Origin: Candidatus Falkowbacteria bacterium HGW-Falkowbacteria-1
GTDB taxonomy: Bacteria; Patescibacteriota; Patescibacteriia; Patescibacteriales; UBA12465
Reading direction: 5' to 3'
Length of the DNA stretch: 64,000 nucleotides
Assembly (NCBI GenBank): GCA_002840305.1
Contig: PHAI01000003.1
Span: forward strand, 70,908 to 134,907
Shown: one piece after another, positions 4,095 through 64,000 of the stretch
How positions within the stretch are numbered: the first letter of the stretch is position 1
Layout: every line of letters begins with the position of its first letter
Position numbers and translations under genes: made by a program
Notes under the pieces: generated by a model
What the model saw: the letters and a program-made list of their open reading frames with translations, nothing else
Databases searched by the model: none
What the model was told of the DNA's origin: nothing

Positions 4095-4931
4095 TTAATT
4101 ATTTTGAGAAATATCAGAATAAGCTTCGTTTAAAAGCTCATAATAAACGCCTAAAAGATCGTCATCACTTAACAGGTTTAAATCATCATCGGAAAAACCA
4201 GCCTTTCTTAATTCTGTTCTTATTTCATCTGGAGATATTTGATAAGATTGAGAAATAGAACTATTGTCCGTAGAGCTTCCACTACCAGAGTTTAAAACAT
4301 TTAATATGTCACTATTGCCGTTAGAATCTAATAAAGGATTTGTAGTATTTTCGCTCTCCTGAGAACTTATCATCCCAGAGGAAGAGCAATTTTGGCCCTC
4401 AGGACAAAGTGGATCGGTTTTATAAACAGACGCTTCTTCATAGTCGGTCAAGTTATCCCCATCAGTATCTTCCAAATAGGGGGAGGTTCCATATATAAAA
4501 AGTTCATCCCAATCAGAAATACTATCACCATCAGTGTCAACAAGCTTCAAATCCATATTTTCAGCAGTCAAGCCAGATTCAGCCGAACAATTTCCGCTGC
4601 TACAAGTGCTATTGTCAGTGTTATTACTGGTGGCAGCAACATTTTTACCAGCATTAGGATCTCTTAATACAAAAGGAGATTGAATAAGACTTTTAATATT
4701 TAAAAAGGCTATGGTTATAATCAATAAGGAAAAAACACCTAAAACACCTAGGGCGATTTTTCTTTCTTTGTCTATTTTCTTAAAAGAAAAAGATCCTCCG
4801 CCCTCGCCTTTGTCGTCTCGACCGAGTGAAGCGAGTGGAGAGATCTGCCCTTGTTGATAATAAAGATTTTCGTCAAATTTTTCATTATCAAAATACTCCC
4901 GATATTTATTTTTATTATTATCGTTGGTCAT
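4095..4931 (-). CDS. Single-pass membrane protein with thrombospondin type 3-like Ca-binding repeats
   Basis: 278 aa. TM segment IALGVLGVFSLLIITIAFL. Repeats DTDGDSISDWDE and DTDGDNLTDYEE (DxDxD type). Its stop lies 18 nt upstream of the giant downstream gene. Confidence 0.6.
   Translation of the reverse strand: MTNDNNKNKYREYFDNEKFDENLYYQQGQISPLASLGRDDKGEGGGSFSFKKIDKERKIALGVLGVFSLLIITIAFLNIKSLIQSPFVLRDPNAGKNVAATSNNTDNSTCSSGNCSAESGLTAENMDLKLVDTDGDSISDWDELFIYGTSPYLEDTDGDNLTDYEEASVYKTDPLCPEGQNCSSSGMISSQESENTTNPLLDSNGNSDILNVLNSGSGSSTDNSSISQSYQISPDEIRTELRKAGFSDDDLNLLSDDDLLGVYYELLNEAYSDISQNN
4806..4846. repeat. Family-A palindromic repeat copy lying in-frame inside the 4095..4931 CDS
   Basis: gcctttgtcgtctcgaccgagtgaagcgagtggagagatct shares both termini (CCTTTGTCRTCTCGAC ... 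GGAGAGATC) with the copies at 4976-5081 and 9863-9913. It encodes QISPLASLGRDDKGEG. Confidence 0.6.
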
Positions 4932-4975
4932 AATAAAATATTATAATATTTTTTACAAAAAAGCAAGTAAATTTT

Positions 4976-5081
4976 CCCCTTTGTCATCTCGACTGGGCCA
5001 TCCTACGGATGGCGAGCAGAGAGGTCTTTCCCCTTTGTCATCTCGACTGAGCCATCCTACGGATGGCGAGCGGAGAGATCT
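4976..5081 (+). repeat. Two tandem family-A GC-rich palindromic repeats (54-nt period)
   Basis: cccctttgtcatctcgactgGgccatcctacggatggcgagcAgagaGGtct is followed by a near-identical second copy. Internal perfect stem GCCATCC-tac-GGATGGC. GC-rich island in AT-rich intergenic DNA. Confidence 0.85.
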
Positions 5082-5133
5082 GTTTACAATAAATTAAAGT
5101 TAAATTTATGATCGGTTTTTTATAATCTTATTT

Positions 5134-5439
5134 ATGAAAAATCGAGATTATAATTTTTATGTTTATATTTTAACTAATTATACTAAAAAAGTTTTTTATA
5201 TTGGAGTAACTAACAGTTTAATAGCTAGAATAAATATTCACAAAGAAAAAATTAACAAAAATTCTTTTACCAGCAAATACAATTGTGTCTATTTGGTTTA
5301 TTATGAACATTTTACTTATTATTACACAGCTTTTTTGAGAGAAAAACAACTAAAAAAATGGCGGAGAGAAAAGAAAGCCAACTTAATAAATAAATTTAAT
5401 CCTGATTGGAAAGATTTATATGGTTTAATTACGGGATAG
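5134..5439 (+). CDS. Small GIY-YIG nuclease-domain protein (COG2827/UPF0213-like)
   Basis: 101 aa. YNFYVYILTN....FYIGVTNSL..R...H and the later ...E..LKKW.R.KK pattern are typical of stand-alone GIY-YIG (YhbQ-like) proteins. Confidence 0.8.
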   Translation: MKNRDYNFYVYILTNYTKKVFYIGVTNSLIARINIHKEKINKNSFTSKYNCVYLVYYEHFTYYYTAFLREKQLKKWRREKKANLINKFNPDWKDLYGLITG

Positions 5440-5535
5440 CCCTCTCCGCTCATTCGTAACTTTGCTTCTCATTCGGTCGAGGTGACAAAGGGAAAACATC
5501 GCCTTACTCCTCGTTCAGTCGAGATGACAAAATGG
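5439..5535 (-). repeat. Two family-A repeat copies, inverted relative to 4976-5081
   Basis: The reverse complement of 5476-5492 is CCCTTTGTCACCTCGAC, matching the left-hand terminus CCCTTTGTCATCTCGAC at 16 of 17 positions. The reverse complement of 5497-5535 contains TTTTGTCATCTCGACTGA. The inner copy starts at the GIY-YIG stop codon. Confidence 0.75.
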
Positions 5536-6391
5536 GGTCTATTTTCTCAAAAATATCCAACCAATTATCAATAGACAATTGTTCGGCCCTGCATTTTAAA
5601 TCCAAGTTAAGGAATCTCAATATTTCTTCAATTTTTGCTTGTTCAATATTTAAAGCTGAAGATAAATTATTTTTCAGCATTTTCCTCTTTGCACTAAATC
5701 CATATTTTAATAAACGAAAAAATCTTTTCTCATCCTCATAATTATTAAAAACCGGCTTATTTTCTTTGCCGGAACGACAAAAGGGCCTCGGCTTTATTCT
5801 TATGATCGCGCTCTCCACCTGTGGAGCCGGATAAAAATTGTTTTTAGAAACTTCAGCTATTATTTCAGCATCGGCATAAAACTGAACTGAAATAGAGAGC
5901 AGACTCATTTTCGGTGGTTTGGAAATTATTCTCTCTACTACTTCTTTTTGCAAAAGCAAAACTATTAATTCTGGTTTATTGGCTATTGTCAAAAATTTTC
6001 TTAAAAAGATTGAAGTAATATTATACGGTAAATTGGCTACTATTTTATACTTTCCCAATTTAGAGACATTATCACCTTTGATTTTTAAAACGTCATTATT
6101 AAAAATCTTTATGTTTTTTATTTCTTTAGAAATAATTAAAGTATTTAATACTTCAGCCAATTTTTCATCAAGCTCTACTGCCAAAACTTTTTTTACTAAT
6201 TTTGACATTTTAAAAGTAAGAATCCCAAGCCCTGGACCGACCTCAAGAACCACATCGTCTTTTTCTAAATTAGCACAAGAAATAACTTGATCGTAAACAT
6301 CTTCATTAACTAAAAAATTTTGCCCTTTTGATTTTTCGGGCTTGATATCATAAATTTTACAGAGTTCTAAAGTTTGTTTAAGTAAGTCCAT
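5504..6391 (-). CDS. rsmA: 16S rRNA (adenine1518/1519-N6)-dimethyltransferase
   Basis: 295 aa. KSKGQNFL, SAM-binding VLEVGPGLGILT and NLPYNI motifs of KsgA/RsmA. The last 9 codons and the stop lie inside a family-A repeat. Confidence 0.93.
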   Translation of the reverse strand: MDLLKQTLELCKIYDIKPEKSKGQNFLVNEDVYDQVISCANLEKDDVVLEVGPGLGILTFKMSKLVKKVLAVELDEKLAEVLNTLIISKEIKNIKIFNNDVLKIKGDNVSKLGKYKIVANLPYNITSIFLRKFLTIANKPELIVLLLQKEVVERIISKPPKMSLLSISVQFYADAEIIAEVSKNNFYPAPQVESAIIRIKPRPFCRSGKENKPVFNNYEDEKRFFRLLKYGFSAKRKMLKNNLSSALNIEQAKIEEILRFLNLDLKCRAEQLSIDNWLDIFEKIDPILSSRLNEE

Positions 6392-9807: not shown

Positions 9808-9862
9808 ATTTTTTTATATTAATATTTCTATTCTTTGTTGCCTCAACTGACTAAACTTTATT

Positions 9863-9913
9863 CTCCTTTGTCATCTCGACTGAGCCATCCTGCGGATGGC
9901 GAATGGAGAGATC
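9863..9913 (+). repeat. Solo family-A palindromic repeat
   Basis: ctcctttgtcatctcgactgagccatcctgcggatggcgaatggagagatc is near-identical to the copies at 4976-5081. It lies intergenic between porG and the DsbA-like gene. Confidence 0.85.
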
Positions 9914-35253: not shown

Positions 35254-35355
35254 ATTTTAATACAAATTTAATTACAAGCTTATTATACCTCAAAAACTTT
35301 AGATTTAAAACTAGCACTCAGGTTCGAACACGACTCACGTAAAATCATCACACCC

Positions 35356-35406
35356 CTGCCGCAAGCCACACAGGCGGCTTGCTTCCCCTCGCTCATTCAA
35401 AAAAAA
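35356..35406. repeat. 51-nt direct repeat, copy 1 (hairpin GCAAGCC...GGCTTGC plus CCCCTCGCTCATTC plus A-run)
   Basis: ctgccgcaagccacAcaggCggcttgcttcccctcgctcattcaaaaaaa differs at 2 positions from the copy at 36106-36156. It overlaps the 3' end of the GIY-YIG gene. Confidence 0.85.
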
Positions 35407-35681
35407 TAAAAACCAGAAAAATAATTAGTTAACTGTTTTTTGATATATTTTCTCCCGGCCCCACTTTTTAAAAACGCCTCTCTCTTCATGGCGTCTTTTT
35501 TAATTAGATAAGCTTCATAATAAATAAGGTACCAAGCATTTTTTTTAGATGTCGTCTGACAACCCTTGCCAATTAAATGATCTCTAATTCTACGACGCAA
35601 ATTAGATGAATATCCCGTATACCAACTCTTATCATTTTTATTCTCTAAAATATAAATATAATACATCAAAATATTATACAA
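35397..35681 (-). CDS. Small GIY-YIG nuclease-domain protein (COG2827-like), second copy
   Basis: 94 aa. YYIYILEN.....YTGYSSNL..R...H and E.....K.A..RE..LK pattern. Confidence 0.8.
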   Translation of the reverse strand: MYNILMYYIYILENKNDKSWYTGYSSNLRRRIRDHLIGKGCQTTSKKNAWYLIYYEAYLIKKDAMKREAFLKSGAGRKYIKKQLTNYFSGFYFF

Positions 35682-35765: not shown

Positions 35766-35935
35766 AAGCCACGTATAGATCGTTCGTCGCAAGCGACCTC
35801 ACTCGCACGTGGCTCGCGTAAAGTATCACGCGGCTGTGCCACGTGATAAAAATGGCCACGTGAAGTGCCCTTCGGGCACAACGTGGCTCGCGTAAAGCCT
35901 ACGGCCACGTGGCTTGCCTTCGGCTGCGCCGCGTG
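35766..35935. repeat. Cluster of GC-rich palindromic units built on GCCACGTG / CACGTGGC stems (family B)
   Basis: ACGTGGCTCGCGTAAAG occurs twice (about 35808 and 35881). There are several GCCACGT...ACGTGGC stems and a GTGCCC-TTCG-GGCAC hairpin. GC content is far above the flanks. Confidence 0.8.
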
Positions 35936-35940
35936 CAAAT

Positions 35941-36000
35941 CAAAAAACACCCATTGGGTGTTTTTTGATTTGTTTTACGCGGCTCGGGGACAGAGATTCG
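35941..36000. repeat. Duplicate of the tRNA-Gln terminator hairpin plus the tRNA 3' end
   Basis: Hairpin AACACCCA-tt-GGGTGTT, then gctcggggacagAgaTtcg, which matches 36185-36203 at 17 of 19 positions. The layout parallels 36148-36203. Confidence 0.75.
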
Positions 36001-36105
36001 GTCACGGTCACTAAGCCTCGCTTTCTCGCCTTGCTCGTCGCTCGCTAAGTGCCCCGACCCGGCCTCGCCCGTGCACTTCGTGCACATGGCTCCGGCTTTC
36101 GAGTC

Positions 36106-36156
36106 CTGCCGCAAGCCACGCAGGTGGCTTGCTTCCCCTCGCTCATTCAAAAAAAC
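36106..36156. repeat. 51-nt direct repeat, copy 2
   Basis: ctgccgcaagccacGcaggTggcttgcttcccctcgctcattcaaaaaaa with a perfect 9-bp stem GCAAGCCAC / GTGGCTTGC. Confidence 0.85.
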
Positions 36157-36177: not shown

Positions 36178-36185
36178 TTCATTCG

Positions 36186-36256
36186 CTCGGGGACAGGGAC
36201 TCGAACCCCGATCGACGCCTTCAAAGGGCGCTGTCCTACCATTAGACGATCCCCGA
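36186..36256 (-). tRNA. tRNA-Gln (anticodon UUG)
   Basis: Manual cloverleaf on the minus strand. Acceptor TCGGGGA/TCCCCGA (U1-A72). D arm GTCT-AATGGTA-GGAC. Anticodon arm GCGCC-CTTTGAA-GGCGT. T arm CGGGG-TTCGAGT-CCCTG. No encoded CCA. Confidence 0.88.
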
Positions 36257-63658: not shown

Positions 63659-64000
63659 ATGTAAAAATTTAAAACAAAATTAAAAAATACCAATAAAAAA
63701 CGAAAATTGGCTTATTTCTATTATAATTTAATAATACCTTTTTGACAAGGGCTGGTTTTTGAGTAAAACACGCCCTTCCATTAAGCAAAAAAATGTGCTA
63801 TAGTAAAAACAAGGAAGCCTTGCTTTTTATCAAGTTTTGGAACACCTATTTTCGGCTTTTTCTTGTTTACGGTCGTGACCGCGAACACAAAAGCTGAGGC
63901 AAATTCGTTTAAAAATTTATGAAAACGGAAGTAAAATTCTATTTTAATAGTTTTTAGGCGACTCCGCGTGAGTGGAGACTCGTATCGAGTTTGCCAAAAT

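Follow-up and report, generated by a model that had tools for sequence, protein, structure and literature searches.

The stretch of DNA analyzed here, referred to below as the window, comprises 64,000 nucleotides (positions 70,908 to 134,907 of contig PHAI01000003.1) from Candidatus Falkowbacteria bacterium HGW-Falkowbacteria-1, a member of the candidate phyla radiation (CPR), or Patescibacteria, and is AT-rich, with about 33% G+C. Our subject is a small cassette (4972..5536), located between rsmA and the gene of a TSP3-like protein, that consists of two forward hairpin repeats, an ssn-like GIY-YIG nuclease gene and two inverted hairpin repeats. The boundaries of the cassette were placed from the conserved 3' end of rsmA and the common 'ttacttgcttttttgt..tattataat' region (alignment A6). 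The nuclease gene (5134..5439, forward strand) encodes a single-domain protein of 101 amino acids that we assign below, with good probability, to the Ssn type. A first-pass annotation, which had been made from the sequence alone, had described this gene and its bracketing palindromes, and the gene was borne out by a match of its product to PF01541 (E=1.1e-12).

The two upstream repeats proved to be tandem as the first-pass annotation had stated, with 54 nt each and 94% identity. The first copy (4973..5026, forward strand) reads TTTCCCCTTTGTCATCTCGAC...GAGAGGTC, and the second (5027..5080, forward strand; covariance-model hit 5036-5084) is the best preserved of all, with the GTC, the stem ATCTC..GAGAT and the following C. 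A promoter-like site (TTTACA, an 18-nt spacer and TATGAT; 5083..5112, forward strand), which is a pattern match only, with 10/12 consensus matches, sits between the upstream hairpin and the start codon, suggesting that this hairpin is outside the mRNA. The first of the two downstream copies (5439..5491, reverse strand) begins at the stop codon of the nuclease gene and has the 5' box CCCTTTGTCACCTCGACCGA, the 3' box GAGCGGAGAGGGC and a weakened stem base. The second (5494..5535, reverse strand; weak covariance-model hit 5493-5536) has an intact 5' box and a degenerate 3' half. As the middles of the two downstream copies differ and they fold poorly, we consider both to be degenerate copies in which the 5' box has been kept. 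The outer termini of the cassette were found to be inverted repeats of one another, as had been claimed, with one pair (I3) of 21 nt that is 90% complementary and two pairs (I5 and I6) of 16-17 nt that are 100% complementary.

Two solo copies, both listed in the first pass, lie outside the cassette. The shorter (4806..4846, forward strand) is the best covariance-model hit in the window (19.6 bits) and is in frame within the open reading frame (ORF) of the TSP3-like protein (4095-4931, reverse strand), where it is translated as GQISPLASLGRDDKGEGG; it falls in a variable part of this ORF, and the sequence of the closest relative, L205, is unrelated there. The other (9860..9913, forward strand) is located in the intergenic spacer between the DsbA and POR genes. 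The 14-mer TTTGTCATCTCGAC, allowing at most one mismatch, has six matches in the window, all of them at these repeat copies, compared with none in 100 dinucleotide-preserving shuffles. A further, diverged copy that had been suggested at 63958-64000 did not appear when the window was scanned with the covariance model with filters off at E<=10. The 5' box CCTTTGTC(A/G)(T/C)CTCGAC(C/T)GA is common to all six copies and the 3' box GAG(C/T)GGAGAG(A/G)(T/G)C is present in five of them, while the middle is variable.

Besides the copy in the TSP3-like ORF, one more repeat copy is translated, at the end of rsmA. The last ten codons of rsmA (PILSSRLNEE) and its stop codon come from the second downstream copy, so that the C-terminus of RsmA in the window (5504-5536) is hairpin-encoded, and the protein has 295 aa here versus 276-280 aa in most relatives. 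In L205 (4850-4903) RsmA also has an extra tail, LFISEGCGVKKDGD, which looks like the remains of a hairpin, read in the usual FVISTE frame. This resemblance raises the possibility that a hairpin may predate the arrival of the nuclease gene at the rsmA site.

The PF01541 match spans residues 8-82 of the 101-aa protein and no second domain was found. Residues Y11, Y22, G24, R32, H36 and E70 are invariant among its relatives (alignment A2), and an AlphaFold2 model showed one compact domain (pLDDT 94). Among solved structures, BH0048, a UPF0213 protein, was nearest to the model, followed by Slx1, also in its complex with 5'-flap DNA. The protein shares the minimal stand-alone GIY-YIG fold of the Slx1-like/UPF0213 proteins (BH0048, EF2693, YhbQ, YazA), which are regarded as vertically inherited repair enzymes (PMC1564403). 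Membership of UPF0213 itself was rejected, as the sequence searched alone against the PDB had no match at E<=0.01, including to BH0048 and EF2693. The protein is under purifying selection (dN/dS 0.06-0.2, dS >1), and the flanking hairpins can stay identical over 31 nt despite the saturation of dS in the gene. Searches identified 7,897 family clusters (50% identity level) at E<=0.001 and 1,980 at E<=1e-10. Viral contigs were nearly devoid of the family (6 loci among 2.9 million), and the 101-aa protein had no match in the defence-system (PADLOC) or phage (PHROG) libraries.

Many database members of the family have 120-260 aa even though the domain has only about 95 aa, which is likely due to gene callers reading through stop-free hairpin arrays. 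Translated hairpins presumably also explain the recurrent peptide strings FVISTE..GEI and ILRFAQDDK in hypothetical proteins. One abundant homologue, P0087, had a single identical context in every sample, always with a terminase-like gene on one side and an MmeI-type restriction-modification gene on the other (L201-L204). In the P0045 cluster (Mangrovivirga halotolerans), two members have consecutive accessions, suggesting tandem GIY-YIG genes.

The enrichment of the repeat next to GIY-YIG genes, on which the proposal of the first-pass annotation had hinged, was evident in 80 metagenomic loci that had been collected through the protein alone. With a strict pattern, hairpins numbered 3.4 per kb within 150 nt upstream of the gene and 4.3 per kb within 150 nt downstream, in comparison to 0.01-0.14 per kb at distances above 1.2 kb and to a density of 0.013 per kb for shuffled sequences. 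The covariance model gave 4.6 and 6.4 per kb for the same upstream and downstream intervals and 0.06-0.23 per kb beyond 1.2 kb. The density within 150 nt of the gene was 30-100 times that beyond 1.2 kb. Orientation also followed the layout of the window, as the strict pattern found 33 forward and 6 inverted hairpins upstream, and 17 forward and 32 inverted hairpins downstream. By the covariance model, 57 of 71 loci had a hairpin within about 170 nt of the gene, 33 had hairpins on both sides, and 30 had the forward-upstream and inverted-downstream arrangement. Several of the 14 apparent exceptions (L126, L148, L155, L158) have variant hairpins with perfect stems.

The hairpins belong to a class found in several phyla. 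When one genome per species was scanned with the 5' box, 120 loci were obtained, and, apart from some chance matches in the coding sequence of sucC, these had the same element, including both its 5' box and its 3' box, in Acidobacteriaceae (dozens of loci), Pirellulales, Bacteroidales, Riflebacteria, Verrucomicrobia and several Patescibacteria. The general form of the element is (T)TTGTCAT-NNN-GA-xy-loop-y'x'-GA-N'N'N'-ATC. Its stem triplets are compensatory across copies and phyla (CTC/GAG, TTC/GAA, TCC/GGA, CCT/AGG, TGC/GCA, GCT/AGC, GTT/AAC and ATC/GAT), and pair 19-25, which was left free in the search pattern, reads GC in 8, AU in 7 and CG in 7 cases. Since this pair covaries without having been imposed, these data indicate that the hairpin is under selection. 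The stem carries a tandem G.A/A.G mismatch and the loop is often GAA, within GCGAAGC or CGAAG, a loop that makes an unusually stable DNA mini-hairpin. Longer forms, as in the window, have a repeated CGAG module or an inserted hairpin. For the long-loop copies of the window, the covariance model (R1) was no improvement over a regular expression. The frame GTCAT, stem and ATC is invariant in the cross-phylum seed alignment, full in four of the six window copies and partial in the other two.

Several arrays of this hairpin are more elaborate. Some of the Acidobacteriaceae loci are composite tandem arrays, and in two of these (L062 3732-4852 and L101 4158-4860) a unit of about 165 nt is repeated 5-7 times, in which the hairpin is joined by a second conserved hairpin, GGGCCTTCGGCCC, and the 8-kb tile has no GIY-YIG gene. 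In four other loci (L094 4612-4709, L079 4692-4754, L106 3386-3433 and L097 1149-1209) a complete copy is preceded by a tandem duplicate of the 5' half only, extending as far as the loop, a pattern suggestive of template switching or slippage at the apex of the hairpin. In locus L097, a 7-kb Patescibacteria contig, four or more stem types (CTC, TTC, CCT and TGC) are represented among more than 20 hairpins, and the gene is bracketed by the CCT type only. Directly 3' of the gene in L121, a very high-coverage contig, there are seven head-to-tail hairpins (5383-5654) with a constant 14-nt spacer and thus a 39-nt period.

The relation between such a nuclease gene and its hairpins had been presented in the first pass as apparently undescribed. 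It has in fact been reported by Chenal et al. (Nat Commun 2025;16:2388; PMC11893778), who identified the Ssn family as hairpin-guided nucleases of single-stranded DNA (ssDNA) and drew the same analogies to insertion sequences (IS) and to repetitive extragenic palindromes with their associated transposases (REP/RAYT). The repeat in Neisseria, NTS (CGTCATTCCCGCGMAVGCGGGAATCYRG), is part of the dRS3 repeat, and in many phyla the gene ssnA (CDD cd10448), whose product is a single-domain GIY-YIG protein of 94 aa, is flanked by Ssn-related motifs (SRM); at least one SRM was present in 71% of homologue regions and SRM on both sides in 42%, and 81% of genomes with more than 200 SRMs carried an ssnA gene (PMC11893778). 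Purified SsnA from four species bound the hairpin as ssDNA only, and not as dsDNA, RNA or the reverse strand, and cut a few nucleotides upstream of it, with cutting governed by the three bases before the palindrome and binding by the C after it (PMC11893778). Deletion of ssnA raised transformation about five-fold when the incoming DNA carried NTS, and the NTS-ssnA-NTS cassette was suggested to have been domesticated by its hosts (PMC11893778).

The window locus shares with this system a single-domain GIY-YIG protein of about 100 aa, oriented hairpin repeats on both sides of its gene, and a repeat frame of GTCAT, palindrome and ATC(Y). Copies dispersed through the genome may be a further common feature, with few of them in the 64 kb of the window. 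Residues Y6, Y17 and E64 of SsnA (PMC11893778) match the catalytic residues of the window protein at an offset of 5-6 residues. In addition, a Fibrobacter protein with 53% identity to the window protein (residues 8-96) is flanked by hairpins that have the Neisseria NTS core CGTCATTCCCGCGCAGGCGGGAATCC. Because of the identical GTCAT-palindrome-ATC frame and this NTS-flanked relative, we propose that the locus is probably an Ssn/SRM cassette, an Ssn-family GIY-YIG nuclease flanked by its cognate hairpins. The placement was made through two proxies for membership of cd10448 or similarity to the SsnA of N. meningitidis, namely the Fibrobacter relative and the distinctness from UPF0213. As the pairing of gene and hairpin was described in 2025, the window locus would be a CPR example of a known system and not a new kind. 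What is new is modest: the Patescibacteria host, a G.A hairpin type that the published pattern misses, and the presence/absence and boundary evidence for the cassette described below. The main text of the published work makes no mention of Patescibacteria, Bacteroidota or Acidobacteria (PMC11893778).

A number of observations weigh against the assignment to the Ssn/SRM system. The published SRM pattern, HGTCWYN(0-2)YYVSBRHN(0-5)WNVSBRGN(0-2)RNCYNB, had no match in the window and matched within 1 kb in only 6 of 70 related loci. That pattern is a search aid and not a biochemical definition, and typical G.A-type hairpins fail it while the NTS consensus passes, which led us to regard the G.A-type hairpins as a subclass that the pattern misses. 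The window stems, with their tandem G.A/A.G internal mismatch and long, variable modular inserts (hairpins of 24-60 nt), appear to differ from the hairpins that were tested biochemically. Two of the six window copies lack the 3' half or the stem base, and these six, five of them at the gene, are all that were present in the 64 kb examined of a 568-kb contig. Nearest-neighbour folding z-scores were modest (-2.5 to +0.8), because the energy model gives no credit to G.A pairs. The converse association was also weaker, since only 2 of the 120 hairpin-found tiles had the gene, both of them from Patescibacteria and both with the gene bracketed by hairpins, and the dozens of hairpin-bearing 8-kb Acidobacteriaceae tiles included none with such a gene.

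If the locus is an Ssn/SRM cassette, the 101-aa protein would recognize the repeat only as a folded single-stranded hairpin, and on the forward strand only, through the GTC that directly precedes the stem and the C that directly follows it. Cleavage of the single strand would take place a few nucleotides before the hairpin, immediately 5' of GTCAT. Since the hairpins of the left side are forward and those of the right side inverted, cuts are predicted at both outer edges of the cassette, one per strand, and these edges coincide with the limits of similarity between cassette copies. The likely substrate would be transient ssDNA from transformation uptake or from replication or repair intermediates, as shown for Neisseria, and the nuclease may only police ssDNA, such as DNA taken up by the CPR cell. 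The anatomy, covariation, gene-hairpin association, unit boundaries, purifying selection and presence/absence are from the present analysis, and the ssDNA specificity and cut position are those of relatives (PMC11893778). We infer that the window protein would have the same ssDNA activity as these SsnA relatives.

Comparisons between genomes indicated that the cassette behaves as a discrete, horizontally spreading unit. Diverged cassettes in unrelated contexts could be aligned from the left (T)TTGTCAT to the right ATGACAA(A), and not beyond. The 31 canonical units had lengths of 354-585 bp, that of the window being about 565 bp, and the base preceding GTCAT was a T in 24 of the 31 at each end. 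Three syntenic relatives, in which RsmA is 80%, 73% and 72% identical to that of the window, have kept the order of the genes for DsbA, POR, ferredoxin, LeuRS, RsmA, the TSP3-like protein and a giant protein. The spacer between rsmA and the next gene is 48, 64 and 21 nt in these relatives versus 573 nt in the window, and alignment A6 has a gap in each of them over the entire region between about 4972 and 5536. Likewise, the DsbA-POR spacer has 114 nt in the window versus 11-14 nt in the three relatives, where the solo hairpin at 9860 is absent. Of the two signs of mobility that the first-pass annotation had named, presence/absence was found, whereas no target-site duplication abutted the ends of 28 of the 31 units.

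These findings led us to consider whether the cassette is an active IS-like or homing-like mobile element whose nuclease cuts the hairpin ends for excision, copying or gene conversion, with the solo hairpins as non-autonomous derivatives similar to REP sequences or to miniature inverted-repeat transposable elements (MITEs). Such an explanation would add to the Ssn assignment without conflicting with it, and we consider it possible, if doubtful. It would account for the empty sites of both the cassette and the 9860 hairpin, for unit limits that are the outer ends of hairpins with unrelated flanks, and for proteins that are 55-64% identical across phyla, and it agrees with the recorded transfer of GIY-YIG genes from Patescibacteria to other groups (PMC12455944) and with predicted Ssn cut sites at the edges of the unit (PMC11893778). 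The decayed hairpin-like RsmA tail of L205 would fit homing into a pre-existing hairpin. Set against this are the lack of target-site duplications, the hydrolytic nature of GIY-YIG enzymes, for which a strand-transfer step is not known, and the finding of no near-identical copies in differing contexts, the best pairs being 75-87% identical. The abundant homologue P0087 was in the same context in all samples, some high-GC homologues are in conserved synteny (L158, L164, L169), viral contigs almost lack the family, and gene-less hairpin doublets had no consistent forward-then-inverted order (29 versus 12 in one set and 28 versus 29 in the other). The nuclease may have some role in moving the cassette; active mobility, in which the cassette is moved by its own nuclease, nevertheless seems to us rather improbable. 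We are equally hesitant about the boldest form of the idea, which is unlikely and offered as speculation, in which the hairpin-ssn-hairpin cassette would represent a new mechanistic class of autonomous mobile elements and would be the source of the solo hairpins dispersed in Patescibacteria, Bacteroidota, Acidobacteriota and other phyla. In such an element a 100-aa GIY-YIG ssDNA nuclease would cut its own hairpin ends and so drive the copying or homing of a unit of about 0.4 kb into other hairpin sites. The presence/absence and boundary data are compatible with an autonomous element and are no proof of one, and the published work raised this only as an analogy (PMC11893778).

That the repeats work as RNA, as terminators, mRNA stabilizers or regulatory hairpins, with an adjacency to the gene that is unrelated to nuclease activity, we regard as very improbable. 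The GC-rich stems do lie in AT-rich spacers at gene ends, and covariation alone cannot separate RNA from DNA hairpins. However, the stems are not followed by a T-tract and no terminator was called at the repeats, copies occur in both orientations and within ORFs, the start codon is separated from the upstream hairpin by the promoter-like site, the loops are of the type that is stable in DNA, and the density peak centres on a single gene family. Rfam had no family matching the repeats, even at E<=1, with only tRNAs and noise at gathering or permissive thresholds. The RNA version of the hairpin was, moreover, unbound by SsnA (PMC11893778).

The least probable reading of all is that of a REP/RAYT system or of an ordinary IS with its MITEs, and we do not believe the locus to be either. 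The likeness is in the layout, with inverted hairpins that enclose a single-copy nuclease gene and that also occur many times in spacers, alone or in pairs, in the short imperfect palindromes with a conserved 5' tail, and in a hairpin that is thought to be recognized in ssDNA. REP palindromes are preceded by a conserved GTAG, whereas the 5' signature here is (T)TTGTCAT, and the sole domain of the protein is GIY-YIG, with no HUH Y1 (TnpA_REP), DDE, serine or tyrosine transposase. A RAYT is an HUH tyrosine transposase, which acts through a covalent intermediate and is able to rejoin strands, in contrast to the hydrolytic GIY-YIG enzyme of the window; membership of REP/RAYT was rejected on these grounds. 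With IS200/IS605 elements and their MITEs, the cassette has in common a compact unit, structured ends, presence/absence between related genomes and short gene-less derivatives, and its terminal inverted repeats are a further IS-type feature. It differs from them in a unit of only about 0.4 kb and in inverted ends, where IS200/IS605 has co-oriented subterminal hairpins. Membership of IS was rejected for want of a transposase domain and of duplications at the ends of 28 of the 31 units. The REP/RAYT- or IS/MITE-like relation proposed in the first pass consequently survives in one respect, that nuclease gene and hairpins form one system (from the enrichment, the boundaries and the empty sites), and fails in the other, as the locus belongs to neither group. 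A GIY-YIG homing endonuclease of the I-TevI/Seg type was rejected as well, based on the single domain, the lack of a PHROG match and the scarcity of the family in viral contigs (6 loci in 2.9 million).

The palindromic elements of Rickettsia are similar in being short palindromic repeats that can be in frame within coding genes and translated. They are longer, at about 100-150 bp, and we know of no cognate nuclease for them. Rickettsia is listed among the SRM-rich genera (PMC11893778), so a link of its palindromic elements to SRM is possible.

According to the describers of the Ssn enzymes, every pair of nuclease and hairpin should be a distinct tool and have a specificity of its own (PMC11893778). 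The Ssn/SRM cassette proposed here adds a candidate pair from an uncultured CPR bacterium, with a G.A-mismatch stem and a modular loop. Because this hairpin type is invisible to the published pattern, current surveys probably undercount the Ssn family. To our knowledge, the Ssn enzymes are the only site-specific nucleases that cut ssDNA exclusively. As CPR bacteria are believed to rely on the uptake of DNA, a nuclease that edits incoming single strands could matter for their gene flow. The empty-site comparisons provide concrete evidence of the cassette coming and going as a unit.

The window has a second GIY-YIG gene (35397-35681, reverse strand), whose product is 38% identical to the first. 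Its direct match to BH0048 (1.1e-11) indicated that it is a classical UPF0213 protein. This gene had been described in the first pass as also embedded in GC-rich palindromes, with a motif in common. A common repeat family was not upheld, as the hairpin covariance model had no match there, and hence no SRM-type hairpins were identified. Its surroundings, next to tRNA-Gln, instead contain a direct repeat of another kind, 51 nt long, and further hairpins rich in GC. The motif that was said to link the two regions, the 12-mer GAATGAGCGRAG, is weak evidence, with three occurrences in comparison to 0.37 expected, two of the three being inside copies of the 51-nt repeat.

The two copies of the 51-nt direct repeat (35355-35405 and 36105-36155) are 96% identical and bracket the second GIY-YIG gene together with a GC-rich block of 385 nt (35767-36151) in this AT-rich genome. 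One of the copies supplies the stop codon of the gene and the other abuts the 3' end of tRNA-Gln. The block had noise only in a comparison with Rfam, and it contains several CACGTGGC-type hairpins, two exact copies of the 17-mer ACGTGGCTCGCGTAAAG, and two bidirectional, terminator-like stems flanked by A/T. In addition, a 19-nt partial copy of the 3' end of tRNA-Gln (35982-36000 versus 36185-36203, 89% identical) is located about 200 nt from the real gene, and could be a remnant of integration or duplication at the tRNA.

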